Shown here: positions 18,150 through 44,600 of the stretch, one piece after another
How positions within the stretch are numbered: position 1 is the stretch's first letter
Layout: every line of letters starts with the position of its first letter
Source: Candidatus Doudnabacteria bacterium
Lineage (GTDB): Bacteria > Patescibacteriota > Doudnabacteria > UBA920
Direction: 5' to 3'
Length of the DNA stretch: 64,000 nucleotides
Assembly (NCBI GenBank): GCA_003151625.1
Contig: PLYC01000010.1
Coordinates: forward strand, 133,515-197,514
Made by a program: the position numbers and the translations under genes
Notes under the pieces: model-generated
Database searches by the model: none
What the model saw: only the letters and a program-made list of their open reading frames with translations
Told to the model about the DNA's origin: nothing

Positions 18150-18332
18150 AATTACTCCTTTTATTAATTATTATTATTTTTTGCTTCCACTGCTTTTTTG
18201 AGCTTTTCAAATTTTTTCATAAGACTTTCCATTACATTCAAATCTAAATTTTCACCTTCTAAAACCAAAACTTCCAGCTCGTCCAGCGCCGTTTGCAAAG
18301 CTTTTACTATGTTTGATTGTTTTTCCATATAT

Positions 18333-19673: not shown

Positions 19674-19909
19674 TTAGTAAATAATTTATAAAGCATTGGC
19701 GTCGCTCGTCTCGGCTTCGCCGAGCCGAAGTCGGACCAAGCAGCCCGTCTCGGCCGAGGCTATCCGAATTAGCCGAGCCGAGGTCGGATAAGGCAGGGGC
19801 CTTTGAAGCCCCCATTCGTAGGTTCGAATCCTACCGCCCCAGCCAACAACTCTCTCATAATACCGGAGACCGAAGAGTATCAGCGTTTCAAGAGACAGTC
19901 AATGATTTT

Positions 19910-23959: not shown

Positions 23960-25285
23960 TTAAACCTCCTGGAGCACCTGCCCCAGGGCATTCCGGACAT
24001 CGGCCTCGAAAGCGGAGCGGCATTCGAGGGCGTGGGTGAGGGTGGCTTCTTTGCCGCTGACGCAGACCACCAACTGGCATCCGCGGAGTTTGGCCTGTTC
24101 TACCGCTCCCGCGGAGGAAAGCGGGTCGTAGCTCAGGTCAACGTTGATGCCAGCATTGCGAAGCTGCTGGGCGAATCGGAAAGCCATGGCTGTACTGTCG
24201 TTATTGCCGCAGTACGCTACCAGGACTTTATCCGGAAGGACAAGCTCGGATTTGAGCATGTCCAATTCCTTCATGACTGCAAGGATGCGGTCGAGGCCGA
24301 AGGCCATGCCGACCGCCGGTTCAGGCGGAGCGCCGAAAGCGCCCACCAGATTGTCGAATCGGCCACCGCCGAGTACCGCGCCGATTGGCACGCCGGGAAT
24401 CACTCCTTCCAGAATGAAACCGGTGTAATAGTCGGCGCCGCGAGCCAACGTAAGGTCGATTCTGACGTGAGATAGCACTTCGTCGGGCAGATAAGAGAAA
24501 ATCTCCCGGAGCTCAGCGATGCCGGTTAATCCGGCCGGCTGGTCGTGAAGATTGTCTTGAAGGTGTTGAAGCATGTCTTCGAGCGAGCCGGAAATAGCGA
24601 TGACGCCCATAATGCTTTCTATCAGGGCGCTGCCAACCCGGCGGCGTTTCAGGTCTTCGCGAATCCCTTCCAGGCCTGCCTTGGTCACCTTGTCGGCGTA
24701 ATCCATAGCGCGTTGCACCTTGAGGATGCCGTCTTTGCCGGTGATACCGGCGCGGGCAGCAATGGCCTGGATGATCATGCGATGATTGACGCGGATGACG
24801 AACTGCCGGAAACCGAGGTCGCAAAGGCCGCGGTATGCTACGGAGATAATATCAGCGTCAGCCAGAAGGCTGGAAGCGCCAATGATGTCCCCATCGCATT
24901 GCATAAACTCGCGGAAGTGCCCCTTGTCCGGTTTGTCATCGCGAAACACATAGCCGAACTGATACCGCTTGTAGGGGCGGGGCAGGTCGGGGTGCATGCT
25001 GGCTACGCGAGCCAGCGGTACCGTTAGGTCGTAGCGGAGAACGAGACGGTGTTTCTTGTTGTCTCCCAGGCGGAAGATGAGCTTCTCGCCCTCGCCGTGG
25101 TGGCCGTCAAATACGACCTCGTTCTCGATGGTGGGGGTATCGTGGGGAGTGAAACCGCTCTTCTCGTAGACAGAACGGAGAATACGGATAACGTAATCAC
25201 GCACCCGCATTCCAAGCCCCAGCTTGTCAGTAGTGCCCGGAGGGACGGCGTTCTTAAGCCGAGACCGGGTCTGTGGATGACCCAT
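23960..25285 (-). CDS. Divergent class-II HisRS-like paralog 1 (full length with anticodon-binding-like domain)
   Basis: Altered motif 2 RDDKPDKGHFREFMQCDGDIIG, histidine-binding ARGADYYTG, motif 3 LGGGRFDNL and a C-terminal alpha/beta ABD-like region. Confidence 0.8.
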   Translation of the reverse strand: MGHPQTRSRLKNAVPPGTTDKLGLGMRVRDYVIRILRSVYEKSGFTPHDTPTIENEVVFDGHHGEGEKLIFRLGDNKKHRLVLRYDLTVPLARVASMHPDLPRPYKRYQFGYVFRDDKPDKGHFREFMQCDGDIIGASSLLADADIISVAYRGLCDLGFRQFVIRVNHRMIIQAIAARAGITGKDGILKVQRAMDYADKVTKAGLEGIREDLKRRRVGSALIESIMGVIAISGSLEDMLQHLQDNLHDQPAGLTGIAELREIFSYLPDEVLSHVRIDLTLARGADYYTGFILEGVIPGVPIGAVLGGGRFDNLVGAFGAPPEPAVGMAFGLDRILAVMKELDMLKSELVLPDKVLVAYCGNNDSTAMAFRFAQQLRNAGINVDLSYDPLSSAGAVEQAKLRGCQLVVCVSGKEATLTHALECRSAFEADVRNALGQVLQEV

Positions 25286-26621
25286 TGTTTGCGCTCTCCT
25301 TGGCGCGGATGAGGCTAATAGCCTCTTTGGTGCTCACGTTGCTGGTTTGTCCTGTGGACATATCCTTGAGGGAAACATAGCCGCCGGCGACTTCGTCGTC
25401 GCCGATCACGATGATGAAAGGAATTCCCAGCCGGCTGGCGTAGGTTACCTTTTTTTTCAGCTTGGCATCATCGAAGTATACGGCCGTAGGTATGCCGCCT
25501 TCGCGCAACTCGGTAGCTGCCTGCAAAGGAACGCGGAGATCGGAAGTTTGCGGAATGACCAGCACTATAGCGGGCGTTGCGGATTTGGGAGTAATGATGC
25601 CCGCTTCGCGAAGCTGGTAAAACAGCCTGGTCAGGCCAATGGAAATTCCGACGCCGGGCAACTGTTTGTTGGTATAGTACCCAGCCAGGTCGTCGTAACG
25701 TCCGCCCGAACAGACACTGCCGATGCCGGGGTAGTCATTCAGCACCGTTTCGTACACGGTGCCCGTGTAATAGTCGAGGCCGCGGGCGATTGTCAGGTCA
25801 ATAGCGTAATTCTGCCCGGGAACCCCAAGCGCCGAGACGTAGGAAATTACCTTCTCCAATTCGTCGACGCCGGTATGGAAAGTGCCGTTGCTGATCTGCA
25901 TCTGCTTGAGCTGGGAGAGGATGGCGGCCGTGTCGCCTGTCAATCCGATGAACGCAAGAACTTCGCGCGCCGCATTGGGTGGCGCTCCTAGACCGGCCAA
26001 CTCCTGCTGAACTGCTTCCTGCCCGGCTTTCTCCAGCCTGTCGACCGAACGGAGGATGTCCGCGGCCTGGCTGGCAAGTCCGAGCGATTCGAAGAAGCCG
26101 TTCAGAATCTTGCGATTGTTGATTTTGATGGTGAAGCGGGAAAAGCCGAGCGCCGTAAAGGTTGCGTAGATGACGCTGGGAATTTCCGCGTCGTTTAGCA
26201 AACTCAAAGCGCCGTCGCCGATGATGTCGATGTCGCACTGGTAGAATTCCCGGAAACGGCCTCTCTGCGGCCGCTCTCCGCGGAACACTTTTCCGATGTG
26301 GTAGCGCCGGAAAGGAAACGCGAGGTCCGGATAGTGCTGCGCTACATAGCGGGCCAACGGAACCGTGAGATCAAACCTCAAGGCCAAATCGCTGTCGCCC
26401 TTGGTGAAGCGGTAAATCTGCTTTTCGGTCTCACCGCCCGCCTTGGCCAAAAGCACTTCGGCCAATTCGATGACGGGGGTATCTAGCGGAATGAACCCGA
26501 ACCGTTCATAGCTTTTCTGGATTACTCCCAACATGCCGTTGAACAGCATTTGGTCTGCCGGGAGCAGTTCCATAAAGCCGGAAAGGATCCGGGGGGTGAC
26601 TTTACTTGGATTGTTGTTCAT
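25254..26621 (-). CDS. Class-II HisRS-like paralog 2 (more canonical)
   Basis: Motif 2 FRGERPQRGRFREFYQCDIDIIG, ARGLDYYTG, CSGGRYDDL and ABD region AIVLVIP...IPFIIVIGDDE. Its 3' end overlaps paralog 1 by 32 nt. Confidence 0.8.
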   Translation of the reverse strand: MNNNPSKVTPRILSGFMELLPADQMLFNGMLGVIQKSYERFGFIPLDTPVIELAEVLLAKAGGETEKQIYRFTKGDSDLALRFDLTVPLARYVAQHYPDLAFPFRRYHIGKVFRGERPQRGRFREFYQCDIDIIGDGALSLLNDAEIPSVIYATFTALGFSRFTIKINNRKILNGFFESLGLASQAADILRSVDRLEKAGQEAVQQELAGLGAPPNAAREVLAFIGLTGDTAAILSQLKQMQISNGTFHTGVDELEKVISYVSALGVPGQNYAIDLTIARGLDYYTGTVYETVLNDYPGIGSVCSGGRYDDLAGYYTNKQLPGVGISIGLTRLFYQLREAGIITPKSATPAIVLVIPQTSDLRVPLQAATELREGGIPTAVYFDDAKLKKKVTYASRLGIPFIIVIGDDEVAGGYVSLKDMSTGQTSNVSTKEAISLIRAKESANNGSSTDPVSA

Positions 26622-26875
26622 AATATTTGATCAATCCTCCTGCATGGTACAAACTACGGAATGACTGGCTCCATAATTCTGCCAATCGATGGTAAAGAAC
26701 AAACAAGCTCATCCTTATTGCACGGATAAACTTATCGTATTACTATAAATCAATTTAGCTTATATTGTCAAGGAGATTGGGTTTGGCCAGAGAAGCCCCT
26801 GACAAAATTTTTTAACTTGATTTTATTGGATAAATAATATATATAAAAGTCGAGTGAACTGTAAAAAAAGATATC

Positions 26876-26920
26876 CGGGCAGCTCCTAAGAGGAACTGCC
26901 CGGAAGATAAAACCTTTGCC
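26876..26920 (-). terminator. Terminator after the MIO-lyase gene (CCGGGCAG...CTGCCCGG + T7 on the minus strand)
   Basis: Seen directly. Confidence 0.6.
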
Positions 26921-26933
26921 AAACGGCTCGGGT

Positions 26934-28774: not shown

Positions 28775-29374
28775 TTATCTACGCTTACCGACTTCGTCCG
28801 TAATATTTTTAAAAGAGATATCTTTTTCTGCCAGTAAAACGAACAGGTGGTAAATTAAATCCACAGTTTCCTCAATTAATCTGGGTTTGGTTTGTTTTTG
28901 CGCTGCGTGTACAACTTCGAGTGCTTCCTCGGCCACTTTTAGGGAAATTTTGTCCAAACCAGCTTTGAATAAAGAGGCTGTATAGGATTTTTTTGGCATC
29001 TTTAATTTTCGCTCCTGGATTACGCTGAACAACTCCAATAATTTGTTGGGGTCAAAATTTTCTTTAAAACAGGAATAAGCACCCGTATGGCACGTCGGAC
29101 CTACCGGTTTGGCTTTAATTAGTATTGCGTCGTTATCACAGTCTAACTTTATATCAACAAGGTTTAAGATGTTCTTGCTGGTTTCGCCTTTCATCCAGAG
29201 CCGCTGTTTGCTTCGGCTATAAAACCAAACTTTTTTTGTCTTTAAAGTTTTGGCGAAAGATTCCTTATTCATATAACCCAGCATCAAAACAGCGGACGTG
29301 TCGGCATCTTGAATGACGGCCGGTACCAGACCTTGACTTTTTGTCCAATTTATTTTTTTGATTAAATTTTTCAT
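28775..29374 (-). CDS. hisIE: Bifunctional phosphoribosyl-AMP cyclohydrolase / phosphoribosyl-ATP pyrophosphatase
   Basis: N-terminal HisI ([18 protein letters not shown]) and C-terminal HisE helices. Confidence 0.85.
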
Positions 29375-30855
29375 AAGCGTATTGGTATGTTATTAGTTGA
29401 TAAATAATTTTTAACCTGGCTGACGCTAAATTGTCCATAATGGAACAAACTTGCTACCAATGCCGCGTCTGCCTTGCCCTCGGTAAAAGCCAATTTTAAA
29501 TCTTCCAAAGATCCGGCGCCGCCTGATGCGATAACAGGGATTTTTACCGCTTCCGAAACTTTTTTCAAAAGCTCTAAATCATAACCTGATTTTGTGCCGT
29601 CCTTATCCATAGAGGTCAATAAAATTTCTCCCGCTCCTCTTTTTTCAGCTTCTTTGGCCCAGTCGATTGCGTTTAATGAAGTTTCATCGCGGCCGCCCTT
29701 TAGAAATACTTTATATACGCCATCCTTCTTTTTTGCGTCAATTGCTACCACCACGCATTGCCGGCCAAAAGCAAGCGCTGCTTCGGAAATAAATTCGGGG
29801 TTAAGCACGGCCGTGGTATTAATGGAAATTTTGTCAGCGCCTAATTGCAATAATTTGCGAATATCATCAACGGTCTTAATTCCGCCCCCAACGGTGAAAG
29901 GTATAAAGACCTCTTTGGCCACCTGGGCTACCATGTCAAATAACGTCTGCCGATTCTCATGCGACGCGGTAATGTCAAGAAAGACCAGCTCGTCAGCGCC
30001 TTCTTCAGAATACCTGCGACCCAAGGCTACCGGGTCGCCCGCATCCCTCAGGTTTACAAAAGATACGCCCTTAACCACCCTGCCGTCTTTAACGTCCAAG
30101 CAGGGAATAATTCGTTTGGTTAAGTTTGATACAGGTGTTTGAAAATTTAAAGCCTCAGCCAACGTTAGCCTATTTTCATACAAAGCTTTGCCCAAAATGG
30201 CGCCAAAGGCACCCAATGTATTTATTTTTTTCAGAGATTTTAAATCGGAAATTCCTCCGGACGCTATAACATTAAACCCCAAATTTATCAGTTCTTTTAA
30301 AACTATAAAATTTGGCTCGGTTAGGCTGCCGTCTTTTTCCACGTCCGTAAACAAGATTTCGGTTATCCCAAGGGTTTTAAGTTCTTTGGCAAAATCCAAA
30401 TAATTTTTATCAACGGTTTCCTGCCACCCTTTTATCGCAATTTTGCCTTTTTTAATTTCCAGCGCTACTACTATTCGCTTGCTGCCGAACTCTTTAATTA
30501 AAGATGATAATAGGCCAAAATCCGTTAATGCTTTGGTGCCTAAAACAGCACGCCGCACGCCGGAATTTAAATATTTTTGCGCGGTACTTATATCGCGGAT
30601 CCCTCCGCCGACTTCTATGGGAATTTTGACAGCCTTACAAATTTTGGTAATCAGTTCCTGGTTGACCGGCACTCCTGTTTTAGCCGCATCCAAATCAATA
30701 ATATGAAGCATGGCCGCCCCTTGCCGCTCAAAGTCTTGGGCCACGCCTAAAGGATCGGAAGAATAAATTTTTTTCGTGGAAAATTCTCCCTTAGTTAACC
30801 TTACACATTTGCCGTCAATAATGTCTATCGCGGGAATAATTAACATAAATCGCAA
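29371..30855 (-). CDS. hisAF: Fused HisA-HisF protein (ProFAR isomerase + IGP synthase cyclase subunit)
   Basis: The first ~240 aa are HisA-like ([27 protein letters not shown]). The last ~250 aa are HisF-like ([44 protein letters not shown]). Continuous 494-aa ORF. Confidence 0.85.
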
Positions 30856-31430
30856 AAGTTAGATAATAATTTCATTCCCCATTGTCCGGATTTTTCCGGA
30901 TGGAATTGAGTAGCGTAAAAGTTATCTTTCTGTGCGATGGCCGCAAAATCAACATCATAAGCGGTTTGACCGATAACGTATTTTAAGTCCGTTGCCAAAT
31001 AATACGAGTGCACAAAGTAAAAGAAACTACCTGTCGGAATTTCTGTCGTAAGCTTGGATTCTTTAATTAGCTCAACTTTATTCCAGCCCATATGCGGGAC
31101 TTTTAAGTCTGTTTGGAATCTTACTACCCGGCCGGGAATTATAGATAAACATTCGGTGTTATCTTCTTCCGAAAATTCCGCCATCAACTGCATGCCTAGA
31201 CATATCCCTAAAGTAGGAACTTTAAGTTTAGGTAAAACTTTGGCAAAGCCGCTTCCTATTAGTTTCTCCATAGCGCTTCCCGCCGCGCCAACCCCGGGCA
31301 AAATAACCTTATCAAAAGCAGCCAAGCTTTCCGGTTTGTTTACAATCTCAAAAGACTTGCCAAGCGAAGTTAACGCGTTGGCTACGCTTTGTAAGTTACT
31401 CGCGCCATAATCTATAATCGCGATTTTCAT
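30840..31430 (-). CDS. hisH: Imidazole glycerol phosphate synthase glutaminase subunit
   Basis: [22 protein letters not shown] (catalytic Cys) and VHSYY. Confidence 0.9.
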
Positions 31431-32489
31431 TTATAATGACCCTTTCGTGGAAGGCAGTATATCCTTTTGCCGGAAGTCCTTATCAACCGCCATACGCAAA
31501 GCCTTGGCAAAAGCTTTGAAGATTGCCTCTATTTTGTGATGTTCATTCCGGCTATATTTAACATTAATGTGAATATTGGCCTTCATTGTTTCGGCAACTG
31601 AACGGAAAAAGTGTTCTACCATTTCCGTTGGCAGGTCTCCGACCTTCTCTCTTTTAAAATCACAGTTAAACACTAAATACGGTCTGCCGCCCAAGTCTAT
31701 CGCAACCTCCACAAGCGTATCGTCCATTGGCAATAAGAATCCATAACGTTTTATGCCTTTTCTTTCGCCCAATGCCTGTAATAGAGTCTGCCCCAATGTT
31801 AGCCCCACATCTTCTATTGTGTGGTGGTCATCTATCTGTAAATCGCCCTTGGCTTTAATTGTTAAATCAATCAGCGAGTGTTTGGAAAGCTGTTCCAGCA
31901 TGTGGTTGAAAAAATTGATTCCCGTATCAACGCTAAAATTCCCTTGTCCATCCAGATTGCACAAAATAAAAACTTCGGTTTCTTTTGTGCCGCGCTCCAA
32001 GCTTGCGATTCTCGGAAATATTGAATTGGTTTGCATGCCAAAAAACTTCACTCCGATATTTTTGGCAAATCCCGCATCGCTTTCCCTGTCTCCGACCATA
32101 AAAGATTTTTCAAAGTCTATAAGTTCTTTTTGCAAGAAACTTTTCAATAATCCGGCTTTCGGCTTCCTGCAATTGCATTTATCTTTAGCAAAATGAGGGC
32201 AGGTAAATATTCCGTAAAATTCTACCCCTTCCTTTTTTAGCAGTTTCAAAAAAGCATTTTGTACTATTTCAAAATCTTTTTTTGGAAAGGACATTGTACC
32301 CAGGCCGTCCTGATTGGAAACCATAACCAGTTTATAGTTTTGATTTGTCAGATTCTGTAGAACTAAAATTACCCCAGGCAAAATTTTAAGTTTGTCCAGG
32401 CTGTCTACCTGCTCGGTAACCGGCGGTTCAATAATTAGTGTGCCGTCCCTGTCCAAAAAGGCAATTTTTAACAGTTGTCCGGAATTCAT
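31431..32489 (-). CDS. hisB: Bifunctional histidinol-phosphatase / imidazoleglycerol-phosphate dehydratase
   Basis: N-terminal HAD motif FLDRDGTL. C-terminal IGPD motifs (DDHHTIED, RNEHHKIEA). Confidence 0.9.
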   Translation of the reverse strand: MNSGQLLKIAFLDRDGTLIIEPPVTEQVDSLDKLKILPGVILVLQNLTNQNYKLVMVSNQDGLGTMSFPKKDFEIVQNAFLKLLKKEGVEFYGIFTCPHFAKDKCNCRKPKAGLLKSFLQKELIDFEKSFMVGDRESDAGFAKNIGVKFFGMQTNSIFPRIASLERGTKETEVFILCNLDGQGNFSVDTGINFFNHMLEQLSKHSLIDLTIKAKGDLQIDDHHTIEDVGLTLGQTLLQALGERKGIKRYGFLLPMDDTLVEVAIDLGGRPYLVFNCDFKREKVGDLPTEMVEHFFRSVAETMKANIHINVKYSRNEHHKIEAIFKAFAKALRMAVDKDFRQKDILPSTKGSL

Positions 32490-33526
32490 ATAATTGATGA
32501 TAAATTTTTAATTAATAATTGATTTTGCTCCGGTGTGCCAATGGAAATCCTAATGCAGTTTTCGAGTTTGGGTTTGGAATTAAAATCTCTTACGATAATT
32601 CCAAAATCTTCGGCTAATTTTTTCGCTATCAGCGATGCGTTAGGATAACGAACCAGTAAAAAATTGGCTTCGCTGGGAAAAACTTTAAATCCTAATTTAG
32701 TTAATTCCAAAGCCAATTTTTCTCTTTCCCTGAGTATTAAGGTTTTAAATTCCAACATCTTTGGGTATTGCTGCAAGGCCTGTATAGCTATCTTGCTGGA
32801 AACACGGTTTAAATTATATGGCGGCTTAATTTTGTTTAAATATTCAATAGGAGCCTCCTGCGCTACGGCATAACCTACCCGAATACCGGCTAATCCCCAG
32901 GCTTTGGAAAAAGTTCTAAGTATAATCAAATTTTCCAAACTTGATATTTTGCCGATTAAAGACGGCTTTGAAGCAAACTCAACGTAAGCCTCATCAACCA
33001 CTACAATGCCGCGGAAATTGCCGCAAATCTTTTCCAATTCTTCCGGCTTAATTAAAGTTCCGGTAGGGTTGTTTGGGGAGCAACAAAAAATAATCTTTGT
33101 TTTGCTGTTTATTTGGGAAAGCAGGTTTGGAACATCCACTTGGAAATCTGAAGTCAAAGAAATATTTTTTACTGCCACCCCGGCAACTTCGGCCGCAACT
33201 TTGTACATCCCGTATGTGGGTTCCATTATTATAATTTCTTCGTCTGGCTCTACAAAAAGACGAATAAGCAAATCTATGGCCTCGTCCGAACCGTTACCCA
33301 CAAAAATGTTTTTTTCCGAAATTCCCAAAAATTTTCCCAATGCTTTGCGCAAATCAAGGGAGTAGGGATCGGGATAACGGTTAAGTTCGTTGTCGATTGA
33401 TTCGTTAATGACACTGCCAAGCGAGTTTTCGTTGGCGTCCATAAAGACGCCTTTTTGATAAAGGCTGCGGGCCGAACTATAAGGTTTAAAGCCTCTTAAA
33501 TTGGAACGTATTAAATCGGTAATCAT
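32486..33526 (-). CDS. hisC: Histidinol-phosphate aminotransferase
   Basis: Class-II aminotransferase with GSDEAIDLL and the PLP-Lys region TFSKAWGLAGIRVGY. Confidence 0.9.
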   Translation of the reverse strand: MITDLIRSNLRGFKPYSSARSLYQKGVFMDANENSLGSVINESIDNELNRYPDPYSLDLRKALGKFLGISEKNIFVGNGSDEAIDLLIRLFVEPDEEIIIMEPTYGMYKVAAEVAGVAVKNISLTSDFQVDVPNLLSQINSKTKIIFCCSPNNPTGTLIKPEELEKICGNFRGIVVVDEAYVEFASKPSLIGKISSLENLIILRTFSKAWGLAGIRVGYAVAQEAPIEYLNKIKPPYNLNRVSSKIAIQALQQYPKMLEFKTLILREREKLALELTKLGFKVFPSEANFLLVRYPNASLIAKKLAEDFGIIVRDFNSKPKLENCIRISIGTPEQNQLLIKNLSSII

Positions 33527-34818
33527 AAATTTTTCTTGAATCTTATACTTACGGCATTTTTGTGGGCATCAAGGCCTTCTTTTGCAGCCAGGACTTCAAC
33601 CGTGGTTCTTAAATTTTTAATTCCTTCTTTGGTGACTTGTTGAATTTGCATTTTCTTTCCAAAAGATTCTACGGAAAGCGCCGAGAACATTTTAGCATAA
33701 CCGGAGGTAGGCAAGGTGTGATTACTGCCTGTGGCGTAATCTCCCAAAGGCTCGCTGGAATAATTTCCCAAAAATACCGAACCCGCGTTGTTTATTCTTT
33801 TCAGTATGGCATTCTCGTTCTTACAAACTATTTCCAAGTGCTCGGGAGCATAATCGTTAATTAAATCACAAGCTTCCGTTATGGTTTTTGTGATAATAAT
33901 AAAGCTGTTTTTTAAAGACTGCCGCACAATCTGCAACCGGAAAAGTTGCTCGGCCTGTTTTAAAACTTGATCGTAAACCTGTTTTGCCAAAGTTTCGGAT
34001 AAAGTAACCAAAATCGCCTGAGAGTCTTCGCCGTGTTCTAACTGCGAAAGCAGATCCGCGGCAATCCAATCCGGGTCAGCGCTTTCGTCCGCTAAGGCTA
34101 AAACCTCGGAAGGGCCAGCCGGCATATCTATATCCACCTCTCCATATACCATCATTTTTGCAGTGGTAACGTATTGATTCCCGGGACCAAAAATTTTTGA
34201 TACTTTAGGTATGGACTCTGTACCGTAAGCCATGGCCGCAACAGCCTGTGCCCCGCCTACTTTAAAAATTTTTGATATACCGCACAAATCAGCTGCTATC
34301 AGTACCGCGCTTGGAACCTTTCCTTCTTTGTTCGGAGGCACGCAAAGCACAATTTCTTTACAACCGGCAATTTTTGCGGGAATGGCTAACATTAAAACCG
34401 TGGAAGGATAAGCCGCCTTTCCGCCGGGAATATAAAGGCCAACCTTTTCAATCGGGCGAAATTCCCGCCAGATTTGGACGCCTTTGGCGGTTGTGACTTT
34501 TTGTTCCTTAATTTGCACGTTGCTTTTGTGAAATTTTTCAATGTTAGTTTTAGCTACTTTTAGCGCCTTAACCAATTCCTTACTTTCTTGTTTATAAGCC
34601 GTAGCTATTTCTTGTTTAGAGACCGCTAGGACTTTTAAATCCGCCCCTTCAAATTTTTTAGTAAAAGCAAAAAGCGCTTTGTCTTTATTTTTTCGGACAT
34701 CGCCAATTATTTTACTTACTACCGCCTCTACATTTGTTTTTTTGCTTTGCCTTTCCCGGATCAAATTCAGTATAGTTTGAAAGGAATATTGCTTTGTAGA
34801 TATAATTTTCATAAACAT
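33523..34818 (-). CDS. hisD: Histidinol dehydrogenase
   Basis: Typical HisD length and motifs ([22 protein letters not shown]). Confidence 0.9.
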
Positions 34819-35438
34819 TAATTAATACCGCACTTGGATAAGAATTTTGCTTTGGCCTGCTTATTAATCGGGCTTTCGATTAATACGGCTTGGGATTCTA
34901 ATATCGTGAATAACGGCACCAAATTATGCGCTTTTAAAGTAGTGCCGGTTTGCACTATATCGCAAATAGCGTCTGCCAGGTTCAAATCTGGCGTTATTTC
35001 CACGGAACCGGAAATGGGAATTATGGCCGCCTCAAGCTTCTCTTTTTTTAAATAGTCGGTAAGCAGTTTTGGATAGGAAGTGGCGATTCTTTCTCCTTCC
35101 AAATCCTTGGAGGTTTTTATAACGGAGTCTGCCGGAGCCGCTATCATCAGCCTGCATTTGCCAAAATCAAACTTTTTTAATATTTTCGGTTCAAATTCTT
35201 TTTCCGCGAGGACATTTTGTCCCACAATGCCAAAATCCGCCACGCCCCGGCTCACGTATTCCGGAATATCATCGTCCCTAAGATATAATACATCAAGGTC
35301 AAAATTTTGACAGGGCAGAATTAGCGAATGCCCGTTTGGAGCAAAAGTCAGCCCGCAAGAAACAAGGAAGTCCATACTGCCCTGATTCAGCCGGCCGCTT
35401 TTTTGAACGGCAATTCTTAGTCTTTCCGGAGTTTTCAT
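34818..35438 (-). CDS. hisG: ATP phosphoribosyltransferase, short form
   Basis: 206 aa short HisG (LRIAVQKSGRL). Overlaps the upstream HisRS gene by ATGA. Confidence 0.9.
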   Translation of the reverse strand: MKTPERLRIAVQKSGRLNQGSMDFLVSCGLTFAPNGHSLILPCQNFDLDVLYLRDDDIPEYVSRGVADFGIVGQNVLAEKEFEPKILKKFDFGKCRLMIAAPADSVIKTSKDLEGERIATSYPKLLTDYLKKEKLEAAIIPISGSVEITPDLNLADAICDIVQTGTTLKAHNLVPLFTILESQAVLIESPINKQAKAKFLSKCGIN

Positions 35439-36727
35439 AATGAGCTATATCCTTTAAAGTAATTAATAATCTGGTCCTGCGGTATAGTTTTTTGCTTGCC
35501 GGTCTTCATCATTTTAATGGTTACCTCGCCGCGTTCCTTTTCGTCCGATCCGCACATAACAACAAAAGGTATGCTTTTTTTGTCCGCGTATTTTAATTGT
35601 TTCGCAATTTTGGCCGGTTCAAAATAAATTTCCGCTTTTAACCCAGCCGTCTGTATATCACCCAAAATTTTAAGTGAATCCGGCAAGGTGTCCGCGTCAA
35701 AATATGCTACTAATGCCTGCGAATTTAAGCTTATTTCGTCAAGCAGTTTAAGTTGTTCCATCGCTACAATAATACGGTCAAATCCAAAGGCAACGCCCAC
35801 CCCGCTGAATTTTTCAGGGCAAAAAAGTGAGCACAGGTCGTCATACCTGCCTCCGGCGCAAACGGCTCCAATGTCCACTTCCGGTATGTAAACTTCAAAA
35901 ATAACGCCGGTATAATAATCCAGACCCCGCGCCAGACTGGGATCAAAAACCAAAACTTCATCCGGAATTCCAAACCCCTTTGCAATTTTTAAAAACTCCT
36001 GGATTTCAGTAATGTTATATTTTTGAAATAAGTTTAATCTTTCGTTTGAACTGCCTTCTACGCACACTAATTCCAATAATTTTGAAACCTCGGAGTCAGA
36101 AGCTAAAGACTTAAGCTCCTGTTTGATTTCGGCAGGGCTTAACTTATCCATTTTATCCAATATCCTAATCATCCCTGCCTGATTCTCGGCCGGGATTTTT
36201 AGGTCGTTCAAAATACTGTTAATCAATCTGCGGCTGTTAAATTTAATTTTAAACTTGGAAAAGCCCAAGGTAGTAAAAACTTCGGCCATTACTTTGGCGA
36301 TTTCGGCTTCAGCCACCAGGCTCTGTGTGCCGATAATATCTATGTCGCACTGGTAAAATTCCCTATATCTGCCTTTTGCCGGCCTGTCAGCCCGCCAAAC
36401 TCTTCCAATCTGGTACCGCTTAAAAGGCATTGGTAAAGTTTTGTAGTTGGCGGCCACCACTCTGGCAAAGGGGACGGTTTGATCATAACGCAGGCAAATA
36501 TCTCTGTCGCCATTATCCTTAAAACGGTAAACTAGTTTGGATCCCTCTTCGCCATACTTGCCTAATATTGTTTCCGCGTATTCAATTGCCGGAGTTTCGA
36601 TGGCATCGTAGCCAAACTTTGTAAACACAGTTTTAATTTTTTCCAAAACATAATCTCTCTTTGCCATTTGTTCGGGCAAAAAGTCCCTTGTTCCCTGTAA
36701 TATTTTTGGTTCAATAAATTGGTTCAT
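35435..36727 (-). CDS. hisS: Histidyl-tRNA synthetase (catalytically intact), translationally coupled to short hisG; possible dual HisS/HisZ role
   Basis: Motif 2 WRADRPAKGRYREFYQCDIDIIG, ARGLDYYTG, motif 3 GGRYDDL and a complete anticodon-binding domain. Confidence 0.85.
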   Translation of the reverse strand: MNQFIEPKILQGTRDFLPEQMAKRDYVLEKIKTVFTKFGYDAIETPAIEYAETILGKYGEEGSKLVYRFKDNGDRDICLRYDQTVPFARVVAANYKTLPMPFKRYQIGRVWRADRPAKGRYREFYQCDIDIIGTQSLVAEAEIAKVMAEVFTTLGFSKFKIKFNSRRLINSILNDLKIPAENQAGMIRILDKMDKLSPAEIKQELKSLASDSEVSKLLELVCVEGSSNERLNLFQKYNITEIQEFLKIAKGFGIPDEVLVFDPSLARGLDYYTGVIFEVYIPEVDIGAVCAGGRYDDLCSLFCPEKFSGVGVAFGFDRIIVAMEQLKLLDEISLNSQALVAYFDADTLPDSLKILGDIQTAGLKAEIYFEPAKIAKQLKYADKKSIPFVVMCGSDEKERGEVTIKMMKTGKQKTIPQDQIINYFKGYSSL

Positions 36728-36785
36728 AAAAAAAATGTTAATTAAAAATCCACCCTGCTAATTTAGGGTGGGCGGTTTAAGAGCT

Positions 36786-37085
36786 TTAATTCGTCTTAAC
36801 GCCGAGACGTTTAAGCACCAAACCATACCCACCCATGCCATGATGCAGCCAGTGGGCAACACGAGTGATAGTAGCGGTGCTGGAACCGGTTTGTTTGCAA
36901 ATTTCTCTATAAGATTCCTGATTGGAAACTTTCTTGGCTACCTGAAAACGTTCTGCCATAGCTTCAAGCTCGGCAATCGTGCATAAATCTCTAAAGAATT
37001 GTTTGCATTCTTTGGTATTTTTGAGTTTAAGAATACCTAAAAACAACTCCTCAAATTCTTTGGTATTTAACAACTTGTCTTCCAT
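36786..37085 (-). CDS. TrpR-like YerC/YecD-family protein
   Basis: FFRDLCTIAELEAMAERFQVAK and TGSSTATITRV match the YerC/YecD family. Confidence 0.7.
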   Translation of the reverse strand: MEDKLLNTKEFEELFLGILKLKNTKECKQFFRDLCTIAELEAMAERFQVAKKVSNQESYREICKQTGSSTATITRVAHWLHHGMGGYGLVLKRLGVKTN

Positions 37086-37220
37086 AAATATAACTGTTTT
37101 AACGTGTTAATACACTAACACGATTATATTAGCAGGGTGCTAAAAATTTGTCAATAGTTTATCGGCTGTCATTGGCTGGCTCTTAGGACTGGCCCTGAAA
37201 CAATTTAGGAACCGGCGGTA

Positions 37221-38071: not shown

Positions 38072-38443
38072 ATGAGCAGAAAACAAGCATTCACCAGCGA
38101 CCAAATCAGACAACTGTCCAAGAACCCCAACATCTCCCGTTGCGGCAGCAATACGGTCCGTTACAGCAGGGCGTTCAAGCAAGAGGCCATGAGGCAGTAC
38201 GAGGCAGGATTATCCGCAGTGGAGATATTCCAAAATGCCGGAATTGATTTGGATACCATCGGCAAGTACGCCCCCAACCACTTAATGCACCAATGGCGGG
38301 CATCACTTCGGGCCAAGTCCGGAGAAAAGGTCGATCCCTTAACAAGGCCAAACAACAACCTGGAAATGCTGAAGGCCCAGGTGGCCTACCTGAAGGCGGA
38401 AAACGATTTTTTAGCCAAGCTCCGGGCACGGAAAAGAAAATAG
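38072..38443 (+). CDS. IS3-family transposase OrfA (HTH + leucine zipper)
   Basis: LEMLKAQVAYLKAENDFLAKL zipper. Ends in the A-rich frameshift window CGGAAAAGAAAATAG. Confidence 0.85.
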   Translation: MSRKQAFTSDQIRQLSKNPNISRCGSNTVRYSRAFKQEAMRQYEAGLSAVEIFQNAGIDLDTIGKYAPNHLMHQWRASLRAKSGEKVDPLTRPNNNLEMLKAQVAYLKAENDFLAKLRARKRK

Positions 38444-39315
38444 GCTTAAGGCCTTGCCAGCAGTTTGCCATTATCAAAAAGCTTGGCGGAAACCTCAAGC
38501 TCCTCTGCGGGATCGCCCGGGTCTCGCGGGCCGGTTACTACAAATGGCTCAAGGGGCAAGGCAAGCAGCCCAAAGATTATGAGGATTATCTGCTGGTTAA
38601 GAAAATCTTTGACCAAGGCAAGGGCAAGTGGGGCTGGAGAACCATCCAGATGCATTTAAAGGATGATTACGGTATAATTATGAACCACAAGAAGATTGAG
38701 AGGATCAAAAATGACTACGGCTTAATTACCAAAATCAGGAGGAAAAATCCGTACAAGGCCATGCTCAAAAAGACTCTTGAGCACCGGGTGTACCCCAATA
38801 TCTTAAATCGGCAGTTCCGGCAAACTCAGCCCAAGACGGTTTTTTGCACGGACATTACCTATTTGCCTTTTAGCGACAAGCTGACCTACCTTTCTGCGGT
38901 CAAAGACATCGCCAGCCGGGAAATCGTAGGCTGGAGCATGTCACAAAATATCCAGATGGATTTAGTCTTAAACACCTTGGACAATTTAAAACAAAACATG
39001 CCTGGAAAAGAGGTACTCCTGCATTCGGATCAAGGTTCTCATTACACCAGCCCGGACTTCGCCTTAAAGGCCAAGGCGCTTAATCTGATCCAGTCCATGT
39101 CCCGGAAAGGCAACTGCACGGATAACGGTCCCATGGAATCGTTCTTCGGCCACTTCAAGGACGAGGTGGATTTTAAGGACTGCAAAACCTTCGCGGAGCT
39201 GGAAGAGTTGACCGCCGCCTACATGGACTATTACAATACCAAAAGGAAGCAGTGGAACTTAAACAAAATGACGCCGGAACAATACCGGCAATACCTGATA
39301 GAAAAAAGCGGCTAA
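38293..39315 (+). CDS. IS3-family transposase OrfB (DDE integrase core)
   Basis: ARVSRAGYYKW, CTDITYLP and SDQGSHYTS are DDE motifs. The likely product is an OrfAB fusion via a -1 frameshift near 38430-38445. Confidence 0.85.
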   Translation: MAGITSGQVRRKGRSLNKAKQQPGNAEGPGGLPEGGKRFFSQAPGTEKKIGLRPCQQFAIIKKLGGNLKLLCGIARVSRAGYYKWLKGQGKQPKDYEDYLLVKKIFDQGKGKWGWRTIQMHLKDDYGIIMNHKKIERIKNDYGLITKIRRKNPYKAMLKKTLEHRVYPNILNRQFRQTQPKTVFCTDITYLPFSDKLTYLSAVKDIASREIVGWSMSQNIQMDLVLNTLDNLKQNMPGKEVLLHSDQGSHYTSPDFALKAKALNLIQSMSRKGNCTDNGPMESFFGHFKDEVDFKDCKTFAELEELTAAYMDYYNTKRKQWNLNKMTPEQYRQYLIEKSG

Positions 39316-39894: not shown

Positions 39895-41376
39895 ATGAAG
39901 CTAAACGAACCGTTAAAAATTCTGTTTGTCGGATCCGAAGCGTCACCTTTTGTAAAAATCGGAGGGTTGGGCGAGTTTCTTTATACTTTGCCAAAAGCGC
40001 TTCGGGAGCTGAATCATGACGTTCGCGTGATAATTCCCAAATACGCGAGCGTTGATGCGGAAAAATTTCCCATGACCACCGTGATCGAAGGATTAATAGT
40101 TCCCAATCCGGGGCACGAGGACATCGTTTGCAACATTAAAAAATATAATAACGACAACCCGCTGGATCCGATCAATTATTTTTTGGAAAATGAAGAATAT
40201 TACGAGAAACGCGGTAGTGTTTATGGCTACGACGATGATGCTGACCGTTGGGCTCTTCTGTCCCGCGGTACGATAGAATTTATTCGAAACCAGAACGAGT
40301 GGCGGCCGGATATTATTGTAGCCAACGATTGGCAGGGGGGACTTCTCCCTAATTATATGAAAACTGAATATAAGGATGATCCGGTAATTTCCAAAATTGC
40401 GACCGTGTTTGTAATTCACAATTTATACTTCCAGGGAATGTTTGACCACCATCACATCAGTGAGCTTAATTATGACGATGGCAAGTCAGATGTCCCACCG
40501 ATCACCGACCCGAGGCTGTTAAAGACAAATTTCATGAGCCGCGGCATACGTTTTGCGGATGTGGTTAGCACTGTCTCAGCCAACTACGCCCGTGAAATTA
40601 CCACTCCTGAGTACGGCGAGCGCCTCGACACTTTGTTGCAGGAGCGAAGGTCCCATCTGTATGGGATACTTAACGGTATCAGCTATCAGCGGTATAACCC
40701 CGAAACTAACCCTTATGTTGAATTTAAATACAACGCCGAAAGTTTAAACGAACGGAGCAGAAATAAAAAGATTCTTCAACAAAAATTCAATTTGGCGGAG
40801 CAGGGCGATGTTTTTGTGGTCGCGATTGTTTCCCGATTGAATGATCAAAAGGGATTGGATTTGGTGACCGGGACGATTGAGCCTCTCTTGGATAATTTTG
40901 ATTTTCAATTTGTGGTGGTGGGGTCGGGCGAGTCCAAGTATCTTACATTTTTCGAAGACCTCGACAAAAAGTACCCGCAAGTGGCGACTCATCTTTCGTA
41001 TGACGAAATTTTACCCCAAGTAATTTATTCCGGCGCTGATATGATTCTTATCCCATCCAAGTTTGAGCCGTCGGGTTTAACCCAAATGGAGGCCATGCGC
41101 TATGGCATGATTCCTTTGGTGCGCAAAACCGGAGGGCTGGCCGACAGTGTCGAGGATTACAATCCGATTACTCAGACCGGAACCGGTTTCGTGTTTGAAA
41201 AATATGAGCAATACGCCTTCTTCGGGACATTCGTTCGCGCGCTTGAGACATATAAATATCATAACATTTGGCAGGGTATCCAAAAACGCGCCATGGCCGC
41301 CAATTTTTCCTGGGAAAAATCCGCTAAAGAATACGTCAAGCTTTTCAAACGCGCACTGGACCAATTTAACCTGTAA
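39895..41376 (+). CDS. glgA: Glycogen synthase (GT5)
   Basis: KILFVGSEASPFVKIGGLGEF N-terminal signature. Length fits. Confidence 0.9.
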   Translation: MKLNEPLKILFVGSEASPFVKIGGLGEFLYTLPKALRELNHDVRVIIPKYASVDAEKFPMTTVIEGLIVPNPGHEDIVCNIKKYNNDNPLDPINYFLENEEYYEKRGSVYGYDDDADRWALLSRGTIEFIRNQNEWRPDIIVANDWQGGLLPNYMKTEYKDDPVISKIATVFVIHNLYFQGMFDHHHISELNYDDGKSDVPPITDPRLLKTNFMSRGIRFADVVSTVSANYAREITTPEYGERLDTLLQERRSHLYGILNGISYQRYNPETNPYVEFKYNAESLNERSRNKKILQQKFNLAEQGDVFVVAIVSRLNDQKGLDLVTGTIEPLLDNFDFQFVVVGSGESKYLTFFEDLDKKYPQVATHLSYDEILPQVIYSGADMILIPSKFEPSGLTQMEAMRYGMIPLVRKTGGLADSVEDYNPITQTGTGFVFEKYEQYAFFGTFVRALETYKYHNIWQGIQKRAMAANFSWEKSAKEYVKLFKRALDQFNL

Positions 41377-41394
41377 TCATTAAGACTAATATGT

Positions 41395-42888
41395 ATGCGG
41401 TGGGCAAATTTTTTGCACATGTACCAGCCGGCAGAACAGCAGCCGGATATTCTGGAGGCGATTGTCGTCCAAAGCTACCGGCCAATTATCGAAGGCTTGC
41501 TTAAGCATAAGCAGGTACGTCTGACGCTGAACATCAACGGCGCTTTATTGGAATTATTGGATAAGTATAATCATCGCGATATTATCGACAATCTTCGAGA
41601 GCTTGGGTCACAAAAGCGGATTGAGTTTACATCCTCGGCCAAATACCATGCTTTGCTGCCTTTTTTAAATGGCCAGGAAATCGACCGTCAAATTAGGCTT
41701 AATAATGAATCACTGGAATTTTTTCTCGGGAAAGATGTCAAACCCCAAGGTTTTTTTGCGCCAGAAATGGCCTATGATGAAAAAATTCTGTCGATTGTCG
41801 AAAGTTTGGGTTTTAAATGGCTGATCTTGGACGAAATTTCCTGCGGAGGGGAAGTCGGCCATGTCGATTATAATAAAATTTACAAGATTACTGGCACCAA
41901 CCTGAGCGTCTTTTTCCGCGACCGGAGGTTGAGCAATTTAATTATGAGCGCGGTGGTACGGTCCAGGGAGACTCTGCTTGAAGCCATGCGCGACAACCTC
42001 AACAGCGGCCGCTACATTGTGACTGCCATGGATATGGAAACCTTTGGCCACCATCGCCCAGGCCTGGAAAAAATGCTGTTTGAAGTATTTGACACTCCCG
42101 AATTCGAGCTAATTCAAATTTCGGATATTGCCGGGTATTACAAAGAAACCAAAGAAATAATTCCTGCCAAAGCGACCTGGGCCTCAAGCAAGCAGGACAT
42201 TGATAATGGAAGCCAATTCCTCTCGTGGTCGGATCCGGAAAATATTATCCATAAATGGCAGTGGGCATTCACTGGCATGGTGCTCAAAGAAGTATACGCA
42301 ATGGATAAAATCCATCCAAGATATAATTTGGTCCGTAAAAAAATGGATATTGCCCTAGCCTCAGACCAATTTTGGTGGGCCTCAGCCAAGCCATGGTGGA
42401 GCTTGGAAATGATTGAGGATGGGGCTTACCGTCTCCTTGATACGTTGCGCTACATTCCTGATGTCGGGAAAGAGAAACTTGAGCAAGGGCGTGATTTTTA
42501 TGAGCATATTATCGCTACCGCCTTCAATTGGCAAAGAACCGGAAAAATCCGTCAGATGATGGCGGAGCAGGGAGCCATTTTGCGCATACCGTTTAAGGAC
42601 CGAACCATCGGCCGGGGCGGCGCGGAAGAAGGGGTATACTGGGCGTTTATTGATATAATGAAGCGGCTGGAAAAAACGGCCGCTTCAAGTGGCGAGTACG
42701 AGAAAGCGATTCTTTGGCGCGATGCGATCTACAAGCTTGAAAATAAACTGGATATTTACGACACCATCAACGCCATCGATCTTTTGCGCGTTGAAATCCC
42801 TCATAATGAAGTCGAAGCCACGATTGAAAAATACAAGGCGAAATATTACGCCATTCGTGGCGGCCAGCCGGAACAGCGCGGCACGTAA
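41395..42888 (+). CDS. GH57-family alpha-glucan-active enzyme (amylase / 4-alpha-glucanotransferase / branching type)
   Basis: N-terminal HMYQP and typical GH57 blocks. Sits in the glycogen gene cluster. Confidence 0.75.
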   Translation: MRWANFLHMYQPAEQQPDILEAIVVQSYRPIIEGLLKHKQVRLTLNINGALLELLDKYNHRDIIDNLRELGSQKRIEFTSSAKYHALLPFLNGQEIDRQIRLNNESLEFFLGKDVKPQGFFAPEMAYDEKILSIVESLGFKWLILDEISCGGEVGHVDYNKIYKITGTNLSVFFRDRRLSNLIMSAVVRSRETLLEAMRDNLNSGRYIVTAMDMETFGHHRPGLEKMLFEVFDTPEFELIQISDIAGYYKETKEIIPAKATWASSKQDIDNGSQFLSWSDPENIIHKWQWAFTGMVLKEVYAMDKIHPRYNLVRKKMDIALASDQFWWASAKPWWSLEMIEDGAYRLLDTLRYIPDVGKEKLEQGRDFYEHIIATAFNWQRTGKIRQMMAEQGAILRIPFKDRTIGRGGAEEGVYWAFIDIMKRLEKTAASSGEYEKAILWRDAIYKLENKLDIYDTINAIDLLRVEIPHNEVEATIEKYKAKYYAIRGGQPEQRGT

Positions 42889-42896
42889 TTCCATTT

Positions 42897-44600
42897 ATGA
42901 ATATATCAACTGATTATAAGACTTGGTTTGATGGTTTTAAAACCAGACAGGAGTACGGGGATTTTTTAAAAAAACCGGTGGCTTACTTTTGCGCAGAGTA
43001 CGAGCTGTTTGCCTATCTGCCTACTTATGCCGGAGGATTGGGAATCCTGGCCGGAGATTATGCCAGGGAAGCCGGAATTCGAAAATTCCCTCTGCTCTTT
43101 GTCGGTCTTTACTATCGCAACGCGCAAAATAGCCTAACCCCATCAAGCAGTTCACGCGGGGATTTTTTAGAGGAAGCCGGGCTTAAATTGGTGACAAACA
43201 GGCACAATGAGCGCCTGCTCATCAGCCTCCCCATCCACGATCGCGTAATTCATGCACAGGCCTGGGCGTGGACCAGGGAGGGGGCCACAGTGTATCTGCT
43301 GGATACCAATATAGAAGAAAACCAGCCGCACGACCGCGTTATCACCGCCCGCCTTTACACAGACGACCGTGAAATGCGCCTAAAGCAGGAAATACTTCTT
43401 GGCATAGGGGGCTTCCGCCTGCTGGAGCAGCTTGATTATCACTGTTCCGTTTACCACTTAAATGAGGGGCATTCAGCGTTTTTGGCTTTGGAATTAATCC
43501 ATCATGAAATGAAGCACCAGCGCGTTGATTTTCAGACCGCTGTCGTATACGCACGCCAGCATATTGTTTTTACCAACCACACCCTGATTGCTGCCGGGCA
43601 AGAGCAATTTACCACCGAGCTGATCTCGGCAATGATGATTGAATACGCCAAAGAAATGGAAGTTAGCGTGGCTGACATCATTTCTTTGGGCACGATTGAA
43701 GGTTCAAATCTTTTTTCTATGACTGTGCTGTCTTTCCGTCTGGCCAGCAGAATAAGCGGTGTGAGCAAACTTCACGCCGCTAAAGCGCATGAAATTTGGC
43801 CCCAGCACCCGATGAATTACGTGACCAACGGCATTTTTTTGCCGCATTGGGACAAAATCGGCAGTCGGGATGGCGCAAATTTTTGGGAACAGCACCAGGA
43901 AAATAAAAAAAGGCTTCTCTCTCATATCAAAGATAAAACAGGCGAGGTCTGGGACGAAAACATTTTGCTTTTCGGCTGGGCGCGGCGCGTCGTTCCTTAT
44001 AAACGGCCGTTGGTGTTTTTGGAACCGCTCGAACAGTTTTTGGCGCTTGCAAAAGATGCAAGTAAACCGCTCAGAGTTGTCTTTGCCGGACCCACTGATA
44101 ATGACAACGGATTAAATAACGAGCTGTTAGTTAAGCTTAAAAAAATTATTGAAGAAAAATTAAAAGGCATCGGAGTATTTTTACCGAACTACAATGTGGA
44201 ACTGGCGAAACTGATGACTGCCGGCTCGGATGTTTGGCTCAATACTCCAGTGGTCGGTTCTGAAGCGTGCGGCACCAGCGGCATGAAGGCATTACTCAAC
44301 GGCGTACTTCCGCTGTCCACTCGCGACGGCTGGGTTGACGAGGTTGACCTCTCGGCTATCGGTTGGGTTGTTGATGAACCAAATGTCGGGGTAAAGATGC
44401 TTGATGTCGCGGCCAAGGAAATTATCCCGGCCTATTACGGGCATCGTGCCAACCCCAATGGATCAAAGTGGCTAAATCGCATGCAAAATGGCCGTCGGAT
44501 CATTATTGAGCAATTTTCAACCTCGCGCGTGCTTAAACAATATATTGAGGAACTGTATATCCCTACTCTGGCCCAAAAGCACGAGCATAAGTATGAATAA
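42897..44600 (+). CDS. glgP: Alpha-glucan (glycogen/maltodextrin) phosphorylase, short GT35 type
   Basis: AEYELFAYLPTYAGGLGILAGD and the PLP-Lys region ACGTSGMKALLNG. Confidence 0.85.
   Translation: MNISTDYKTWFDGFKTRQEYGDFLKKPVAYFCAEYELFAYLPTYAGGLGILAGDYAREAGIRKFPLLFVGLYYRNAQNSLTPSSSSRGDFLEEAGLKLVTNRHNERLLISLPIHDRVIHAQAWAWTREGATVYLLDTNIEENQPHDRVITARLYTDDREMRLKQEILLGIGGFRLLEQLDYHCSVYHLNEGHSAFLALELIHHEMKHQRVDFQTAVVYARQHIVFTNHTLIAAGQEQFTTELISAMMIEYAKEMEVSVADIISLGTIEGSNLFSMTVLSFRLASRISGVSKLHAAKAHEIWPQHPMNYVTNGIFLPHWDKIGSRDGANFWEQHQENKKRLLSHIKDKTGEVWDENILLFGWARRVVPYKRPLVFLEPLEQFLALAKDASKPLRVVFAGPTDNDNGLNNELLVKLKKIIEEKLKGIGVFLPNYNVELAKLMTAGSDVWLNTPVVGSEACGTSGMKALLNGVLPLSTRDGWVDEVDLSAIGWVVDEPNVGVKMLDVAAKEIIPAYYGHRANPNGSKWLNRMQNGRRIIIEQFSTSRVLKQYIEELYIPTLAQKHEHKYE

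Follow-up and report, generated by a model that had tools for sequence, protein, structure and literature searches.

Introduction

The standard example of an aminoacyl-tRNA synthetase (aaRS) paralog that was recruited as an allosteric enzyme subunit is HisZ, and we know of no intermediate state in that recruitment. Here we describe a histidine biosynthesis (his) operon in a 64,000-nucleotide stretch of contig PLYC01000010.1 (assembly GCA_003151625.1), referred to hereafter as the window, in which hisS, a gene for histidyl-tRNA synthetase (HisRS), lies immediately upstream of hisG, the gene for ATP phosphoribosyltransferase (ATP-PRT). In the ENA the window belongs to contig ERZ27254241:k141_612982. 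The nearest named proteins of the window are those of Candidatus Doudnabacteria, one of the Candidate Phyla Radiation (CPR) lineages, and an independent NCBI metagenome-assembled genome (MAG), GCA_031291995.1, carries the identical gene order with 96-99% protein identity.

The closest described arrangement is the HisZ-HisG_S hetero-octamer of L. lactis, T. maritima, P. arcticus and A. baumannii, which shares with the window a gene of the HisRS fold coupled upstream of a HisG that has about 200 amino acids (aa) and no regulatory domain. A short HisG is taken to imply HisZ (PMC8305728), and short HisG alone has low activity and is insensitive to histidine (PMC10795190). The full-length HisZ of the Geobacteraceae (Pcar_0202 and GSU3307; PMC2923632) is similar in that it is the size of HisRS, has an anticodon-binding domain and occurs in a genome with a short hisG. 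It clusters with HisZ, is dispensable and coexists with a separate, essential hisS (PMC2923632).

The HisG of the window has its counterpart in the engineered ATP-PRT core of C. jejuni (PDB 5UB9), which consists of the long-form catalytic domains without the regulatory domain. According to Mittelstadt et al. 2018, that core is reportedly dimeric, less active and insensitive to histidine. The C. jejuni protein was truncated in the laboratory, whereas the CPR HisG is natural and widely conserved. Histidine-responsive control of gene expression is known from the his attenuator of E. coli and Salmonella (hisL) and from the Firmicutes T-box on hisS and his operons. The HisR (YerC) regulon of Firmicutes and others also resembles the present locus, having a TIGR02531 gene upstream of the his operon and 20-bp palindromes similar to cacTTTAnnnnnnTAAAgtg; the paper that describes it makes no mention of hisS and does not cover the CPR (PMC9413887). 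All components of the locus belong to known families. Our literature search found no report of hisS in CPR his operons, of HisRS-HisG coupling or of a natural long-type HisG lacking the regulatory domain.

An intact HisRS upstream of hisG

The two genes and their junction are as follows.

35435..36727, minus strand: hisS, intact class II histidyl-tRNA synthetase, 430 aa (family models, motifs and structure matches)
35435..35438, minus strand: ATGA overlap of the hisS stop and the hisG start (junction ...TCATTATGAAAA)
34818..35438, minus strand: hisG, ATP-PRT catalytic core, 206 aa (PF01634, TIGR00070)

The operon HisRS scored 404.3 bits on the TIGR00442 hisS equivalog model, well above the cutoff of 286.75. 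It fell below the cutoff of the TIGR00443 hisZ model (215 bits against 271.65) and far under every cutoff of the NF0089xx HisZ models. Pfam placed tRNA-synt_His at residues 12-318 and HGTP_anticodon (PF03129, 50.2 bits) at residues 340-425. The closest solved structures were true HisRSs (6nhi, 303 bits; human cytoplasmic HisRS, 244 bits), with HisZ structures matching far lower, and alignments with 6nhi and human HARS bore out the catalytic motifs, which are motif 2 RVWRADRPAKGRYREFYQCD, HisA LARGLDYYTG, HisB GGRYD and motif 3 GVGVAFGFDRI, with the arginines of motifs 2 and 3 in place. Every aminoacylation motif was invariant in the aligned hisG-linked homologs (16 of 16, at 51-71% identity). 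HisZ is by definition a catalytically inactive paralog, and the operon protein, having kept all of its catalytic motifs, does not answer to that definition. The initial annotation, made from the letters of the window, had described the gene as a catalytically intact HisRS with a full anticodon-binding domain and had seen no separate hisZ. Each of these points held, the last because a HisRS hidden Markov model (HMM) matched just three open reading frames (ORFs) in 64 kb and none of them passed a HisZ model.

In a bootstrapped neighbour-joining tree, the operon HisRS and its linked homologs formed a CPR HisRS clade with 96% support and two subclades. The clade also holds two members that are not linked to hisG. 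One (L034) sits among genes for a class II aaRS, NDK and a release factor, a housekeeping setting, and the other (L030) adjoins enolase. Family models, motifs and tree together identify the operon gene as the native HisRS, predicted to be catalytically active. The difference from the HisZ-HisG_S system is thus that the upstream protein of the CPR is an intact HisRS that passes hisS and fails hisZ models; the difference from the Geobacter protein is that the CPR protein clusters with HisRS and retains all catalytic motifs.

The existence of unlinked clade members in housekeeping settings, together with the kept motifs, argues against a dedicated, non-aminoacylating full-length HisZ of the Geobacter type. 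On that explanation the operon gene would have left translation to serve as a HisZ-like paralog, and a 455-aa gene at 25254-26621 would be the housekeeping HisRS. A second intact HisRS does lie 8.8 kb off, and there is precedent for a full-length HisZ with an anticodon-binding domain beside a separate true hisS (PMC2923632). We nevertheless regard this explanation as highly improbable. The operon gene lies on the wrong side of both the hisS and the hisZ cutoffs for such a role, its catalytic and motif residues are invariant across the clade, a constancy that selection would not uphold in a pure regulator, and members of the clade occupy housekeeping positions.

HisG is related to the long form

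The window HisG has the size of a short form (about 200-220 aa, no regulatory domain) but fails to affiliate by sequence with the short forms that are partnered by HisZ, and has catalytic domains of the E. coli and C. jejuni type. Its top PDB match was the engineered regulatory-domain-less core 5ub9 (168 bits, residues 4-194), and scores against this core and the C. jejuni long form 4yb5 were 167-168 bits. The long forms 7dah and 1h3d (E. coli) followed with 151 and 146 bits, respectively. The HisZ-partnered short forms of P. arcticus, T. maritima, A. baumannii and L. lactis reached only 71-80 bits, which sets the CPR HisG apart from the HisZ-HisG_S system as clearly as the HisRS does. The order of the window operon, hisGDCBHAF(IE) with a bifunctional HisB, is likewise of the E. 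coli/Campylobacter type.

Relatives of the window HisG at 49% identity or more were 182-223 aa long. The next relatives, at 41-47% identity, were 286-302 aa long and carried the HisG C-terminal domain; these include the nearest sequences from outside the CPR. The same gradient in length, from about 200 to about 290 aa, was seen among the 1.84 billion representatives searched, and natural HisG proteins without the regulatory domain made up at least about 20 clusters at 50% identity. The C-terminal domain HisG_C (PF08029/TIGR03455) was carried by two of the relatives (L042 and P0316); no match to it was found in the window HisG or in the rest of the 64-kb window. A detached C-terminal domain was ruled out, as tblastn gave no match in the window or in any locus with a short HisG. 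Judged by these affiliations, the window HisG descends from the long form and is shorter because its histidine-binding domain has been lost.

Since the window HisG is of long-form lineage, the rule that a short HisG implies HisZ (PMC8305728) is not automatically applicable to it. This weakens the premise of the initial annotation, which had reasoned that a short HisG needs HisZ. The same annotation had named a HisG of the long type as an outcome that would count against its proposal; the lineage is indeed that of the long form by sequence, although the protein is only 206 aa and has no regulatory domain.

One relative (P0242, 312 aa) has a TrpR-like (HisR) domain fused to a HisG catalytic core with 60% identity to the window HisG. 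Either repressor and enzyme are truly fused in this protein, or two genes were merged during gene calling.

Candidate regulatory elements upstream of hisS

All genes of the operon lie on the minus strand, in the order hisR, a terminator-like hairpin and hisS-hisG-hisD-hisC-hisB-hisH-hisAF-hisIE. The elements upstream of hisS are as follows.

37126..37154, minus strand: promoter-like site upstream of hisR, TTGACA, 17-nt spacer, TAATAT and TG extension (10 of 12 consensus positions; consensus match only)
37103..37122, minus strand: HisR operator-like 20-bp palindrome CGTGTTAgtgtatTAACACG, directly downstream of the -10 (sequence match)
36786..37085, minus strand: hisR, YerC/YecD TrpR-family histidine repressor homolog, 99 aa (TIGR02531, 97.7 bits, cutoff 42.2; PF01371)
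36750..36771, minus strand: terminator-like hairpin, CCACCCU-8 nt-AGGGUGG with a U-rich tract, candidate attenuator (dG -12.6)

The palindrome CGTGTTAgtgtatTAACACG occurs as a single exact copy in the window, where 0.16 matches would be expected by chance at one mismatch or less. The candidate HisR target next to the hisR promoter reads CGTGTTAGTGTATTAACACG. It departs from the HisR consensus in being a variant, cGTGTTA-N6-TAACACg, and it overlaps the predicted transcription start. A second HisR-like site at 59477-59494, with one mismatch and upstream of a PBP/FtsI gene, is probably due to chance. CTTTA-N6-TAAAG sites were present in 8 of 117 related loci (6 distinct lineages), all upstream of hisR, and in about 0.9 Mb of related loci this core was restricted to that position. 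The sites of the relatives are of the TACTTTA-N6-TAAAGTA type, are frequently in tandem and agree with the published HisR operator consensus cacTTTAnnnnnnTAAAgtg (PMC9413887). In related CPR loci the hisR gene itself is likewise kept ahead of hisS or hisG.

The hairpin between hisR and hisS ends about 25 nt ahead of the hisS ATG and is retained in the minimum-free-energy structure (z = -2.5). Of the 16 lineages examined, most had an equivalent hairpin with a T-run in the spacer from hisR to hisS, and in six of the lineages (L007, L012, L031, L041, L106 and L108) a C-terminal HisR tail containing HHH comes right before it. In one example, the His-run extension of HisR ends in NHHHTPLKLAKGSS and its stop codon, and a strong terminator hairpin and then hisS follow. 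The combination of a His tail and a hairpin looks like a his attenuator whose leader is the repressor's own tail. As in the his attenuator and the T-box, the hairpin stands just before the first structural gene and the His-codon run of the relatives precedes it; unlike in hisL, that run makes up the C-terminal end of the repressor ORF and not a separate leader peptide, and the window itself is without a run. A search for known RNA regulators (T-box, His leader) gave no Rfam match at the gathering threshold at this locus.

A 12-nt sequence in the spacer and -10 region of the hisR promoter, CACCCTGCTAAT (about 37137-37148, minus strand), is the exact reverse complement of ATTAGCAGGGTG (36753-36764, minus strand), which lies about 370 nt downstream and makes up the loop and 3' arm of the hairpin between hisR and hisS.

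As far as can be read from these elements, two controls that apparently respond to histidine stand before hisS, the first gene to follow them. On balance, we lean towards the explanation that the native HisRS shares its regulation with histidine synthesis, and that HisG is a stand-alone, feedback-insensitive core whose control has moved to transcription. Co-regulation is the most economical reading of the locus. The native HisRS gene would head the structural genes of the histidine-biosynthesis transcription unit, downstream of hisR and the terminator hairpin, and histidine supply would probably set expression through HisR at the operator and a conditional hisR-hisS terminator. HisR would act at the palindrome, which overlaps the start of transcription from the hisR promoter. 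With both controls in place, a shortage of histidine or of His-tRNA(His) would increase HisRS along with the biosynthetic enzymes, a joint induction of synthetase and pathway at scarce charged tRNA(His) that we propose here and that would parallel attenuator and T-box systems. The HisG core, having no histidine-binding domain, would work alone and be insensitive to histidine, with feedback placed at the transcriptional level.

Conservation of the hisS-hisG junction

The ATG of hisG and the TGA of hisS overlap by 4 nt, so the ATGA reported by the initial annotation is real. Genes of these CPR his operons commonly overlap or abut, and the overlap alone is not special because 4-nt overlaps are the norm throughout the operon of the window. 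What distinguishes the junction is its conservation. The order hisR(yerC)-hisS-hisG-hisD... was found in at least 18 CPR lineages spanning about 50% sequence divergence, which extends the coupling of hisS to a short hisG, first noted in the window, to a broad set of genomes. In these lineages hisR was always upstream, at 58-374 nt from hisS, and the median gap between hisS and hisG was -4 nt. In a genome scan that started from HisG, the order TrpR-like gene, hisS, hisG, hisD... was recovered in five distinct CPR lineages, which include Doudnabacteria, Patescibacteria AH-259-L07, Gracilibacteria and Buchananbacteria. As the coupling has been kept in at least 18 lineages at this divergence, some functional link is therefore real.

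The nature of that link is where the co-regulation explanation meets its difficulties. No more than 2 nt separated hisS from hisG in 17 of 18 lineages, compared to 56-63% of cases for the other his junctions, making this the tightest and most invariant junction of the operon. In a metagenome scan seeded with HisS, hisG lay immediately 3' in 8 of 10 hits of at least 51% identity. Six homologs were sampled from the best 120, among them Nomurabacteria, Magasanikbacteria, Gracilibacteria and a 1.37 Mb contig, and every one showed the same linkage. This near-universal linkage of close HisS homologs to hisG exceeds what simple co-regulation needs. Moreover, the loss of the regulatory domain from HisG and the linkage to hisS fall in one clade, the pattern that would be expected had HisRS replaced the lost domain, and the two unlinked members of the HisRS clade (L034 and L030) are on visibly longer branches. 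Finally, no His-codon run was found before the hairpin in the window, and co-transcription, HisR binding, attenuation and the action of HisG without a partner are steps that we infer from the sequence. All of these points weigh against co-regulation as the full account.

Several of them would be explained if the operon HisRS both charged tRNA(His) and bound the HisG core as a HisZ-like subunit, activating it, transmitting histidine inhibition or both. Such a protein would either have arrived at the HisZ solution independently or represent a state that preceded the duplication, and histidine would be sensed through the synthetase's own histidine pocket. The invariant junction and its translational coupling across at least 18 lineages and about 50% divergence would follow, as would the finding that almost all close homologs of the operon HisRS are hisG-linked. 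The absence of HisZ and HisG_C from the window and from every related locus examined, and the loss of HisG's own histidine sensor, are also in its favor, and the regulation of HisG by the HisRS-fold HisZ provides a precedent (PMC10795190). We consider this dual role unlikely. The case for it is made from gene order, and with a HisG from outside the family of HisZ partners, it would have required the evolution of a new interface.

The distribution of hisS among related loci also speaks against a dual role. In the scan seeded with HisG, hisS was not adjacent in four of the nine informative CPR lineages with a short HisG (L005, L006, L010 and L025). In three of these (L005, L010 and L025) hisR lies immediately upstream of hisG. 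The HisRS HMM matched no HisRS- or HisZ-like ORF in the flanks of any of the four, which rules out a HisZ-like ORF near these unlinked operons. In the HisG tree, the unlinked lineages were nested among linked ones, and one was sister to the window HisG. Conversely, another locus (L042, 734-2945) has an intact hisS (398 bits) that overlaps the gene for a long, self-regulated HisG (286 aa, with its own HisG_C), with hisD, hisC, hisB and hisH after the pair. Its HisRS belongs to a clade different from that of the CPR operon HisRS, so L042 is an independent instance of an intact HisRS in a his operon. Linkage of hisS is thus optional and independent of HisG length.

We also looked for fused proteins as Rosetta-stone evidence. 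No HisRS-HisG fusion was present among the best 150 HisG representatives, although the multi-domain matches in that set included HisR-HisG, HisG-HisD, HisG-inositol phosphatase and peptidase M15-HisG. The initial annotation had suggested that one protein serves as both HisS and HisZ because a short HisG needs HisZ. That suggestion is weakened by the four lineages of nine without an adjacent hisS, by L042, by the lineage of the window HisG and by the second hisS described below.

A second HisRS and a HisRS-like paralog in a GC-rich island

Beyond hisIE, a GC-rich island (GC 0.54-0.58, compared to about 0.41 elsewhere) occupies 23960-28589 on the minus strand and contains the following genes.

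25254..26621, minus strand: second intact HisRS, 455 aa, outside the operon (TIGR00442, 391.6 bits)
23960..25285, minus strand: HisRS-like paralog, 441 aa, outside the operon, with no detectable anticodon domain and a degenerate motif 2
within 23960-28589, minus strand: HAL (histidine ammonia-lyase)-like MIO (methylidene-imidazolone) enzyme, 551 aa, below the hutH cutoff

The initial annotation had placed two more HisRS-like genes 7 kb away; both genes exist, at a distance of 8.8-11.5 kb (23960-26621). The 455-aa HisRS is 34% identical to the operon HisRS and 60-65% identical to HisRSs of Ruminiclostridium, Clostridia and Acidobacteria. It is a Clostridia-like xenolog, and the island was acquired horizontally. 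An assembly chimera was ruled out as the origin of the island, since the same arrangement is present in the independent MAG GCA_031291995.1. The island was seen only in Doudnabacteria, and no other linked locus had it in its flanks. This distribution, and the foreign character of the second HisRS, are further reasons to doubt that the operon gene has been released from translation to become a dedicated regulator. The initial annotation had also held that a separate hisS in the genome would argue against its proposal, and the 455-aa gene, at 392 bits on the hisS model, is such a gene.

Two intact HisRS genes of different lineages, 34% identical, could in this organism divide the labor, with the operon HisRS inducible by starvation, the island HisRS serving other conditions and neither touching HisG. 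The position of the operon copy behind a HisR operator-like site and a terminator fits this explanation, as does the island of an NCBI Doudnabacteria relative (L002), which has its own second TrpR-like gene next to the HAL-like gene. Because it applies to Doudnabacteria only and leaves the arrangement in the other lineages unexplained, we judge it improbable as an account of the locus. The second TrpR-like gene of the relative (18061-18354, 97 aa) lies between hisIE and the HAL-like gene; in the window the corresponding gap is just 185 nt and contains no such gene. In Oscillibacter, a hisR paralog adjoins hutH (PMC9413887).

The 441-aa paralog overlaps the 455-aa HisRS gene by 32 nt and has an R to H change in motif 2. 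NCBI labels a 98%-identical ortholog 'ATP phosphoribosyltransferase regulatory subunit'. The paralog was rejected as the missing HisZ, as it is below all hisZ cutoffs and its family is never found beside hisG; family neighbors are a full HisRS, M42 peptidase, and HIT or EamA genes. The NCBI label looks like an over-annotation. Pairs of a HisRS and a truncated paralog recur in other bacteria (L097, L116 and L117) beside an M42 peptidase and a HIT protein, and may constitute an uncharacterised two-gene module.

Operon layout and flanking genes

The remaining genes of the his operon are as follows.

33523..34818, minus strand: hisD, histidinol dehydrogenase
32486..33526, minus strand: hisC, histidinol-phosphate aminotransferase
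31431..32489, minus strand: hisB, bifunctional histidinol-phosphatase/imidazoleglycerol-phosphate (IGP) dehydratase (NF003937, 469.5 bits, cutoff 443)
30840..31430, minus strand: hisH, glutamine amidotransferase subunit
29371..30855, minus strand: hisA-hisF fusion, 494 aa (TIGR00007 hisA at residues 6-234; TIGR00735 hisF at residues 245-493)
28775..29374, minus strand: hisIE, final gene of the operon (NF002747, 267.8 bits, cutoff 187)

On the 1.37 Mb contig (L112, 10527-11440, plus strand) an apparent triple fusion, HisH-HisA-HisF, of 703 aa was found. Neither this nor the hisA-hisF fusion is among the his gene fusions quoted in PMC9413887.

Upstream of the operon lies an IS3-family transposase in two overlapping ORFs with HTH_21 and rve domains (38072-39315, plus strand). 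The NCBI relative L002 has a serine recombinase and a restriction-modification system in this place (4004-9572). The upstream flank of the operon is a variable region rich in mobile elements. A glycogen/alpha-glucan cluster adjoins the operon (39895-44600, plus strand) and encodes a GlgA-like glycogen synthase, a GH57 protein and an alpha-glucan phosphorylase. Together with the full his pathway, this cluster indicates a comparatively metabolically rich CPR genome. Elsewhere in the window, about 100 nt past tRNA-Gln, a partial tRNA match at 19776-19834 (plus strand; Rfam, 35.5 bits, model positions 9-63) was not called by ARAGORN and may represent a fragment or a degenerate copy of a tRNA.

Implications for histidine biosynthesis in the CPR

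The locus reveals a natural third architecture for ATP-PRT, a long-form core with neither a regulatory domain nor HisZ. It also brings CPR bacteria, and a tRNA synthetase gene, into the HisR (YerC) histidine regulon, and it illustrates that a complete, regulated histidine pathway is kept by some CPR lineages. There is a small chance that, in a broad set of CPR bacteria, one fully active HisRS is also the histidine-sensing partner of an ATP-PRT that is of long-form descent and no longer has its own regulatory domain. If that were true, these operons would offer a living example, ancestral-like or convergent, of the recruitment of a synthetase as HisZ. The conserved coupling of an intact HisRS to a HisG without a regulatory domain provides a concrete system in which such an intermediate in the recruitment of HisZ can be tested.

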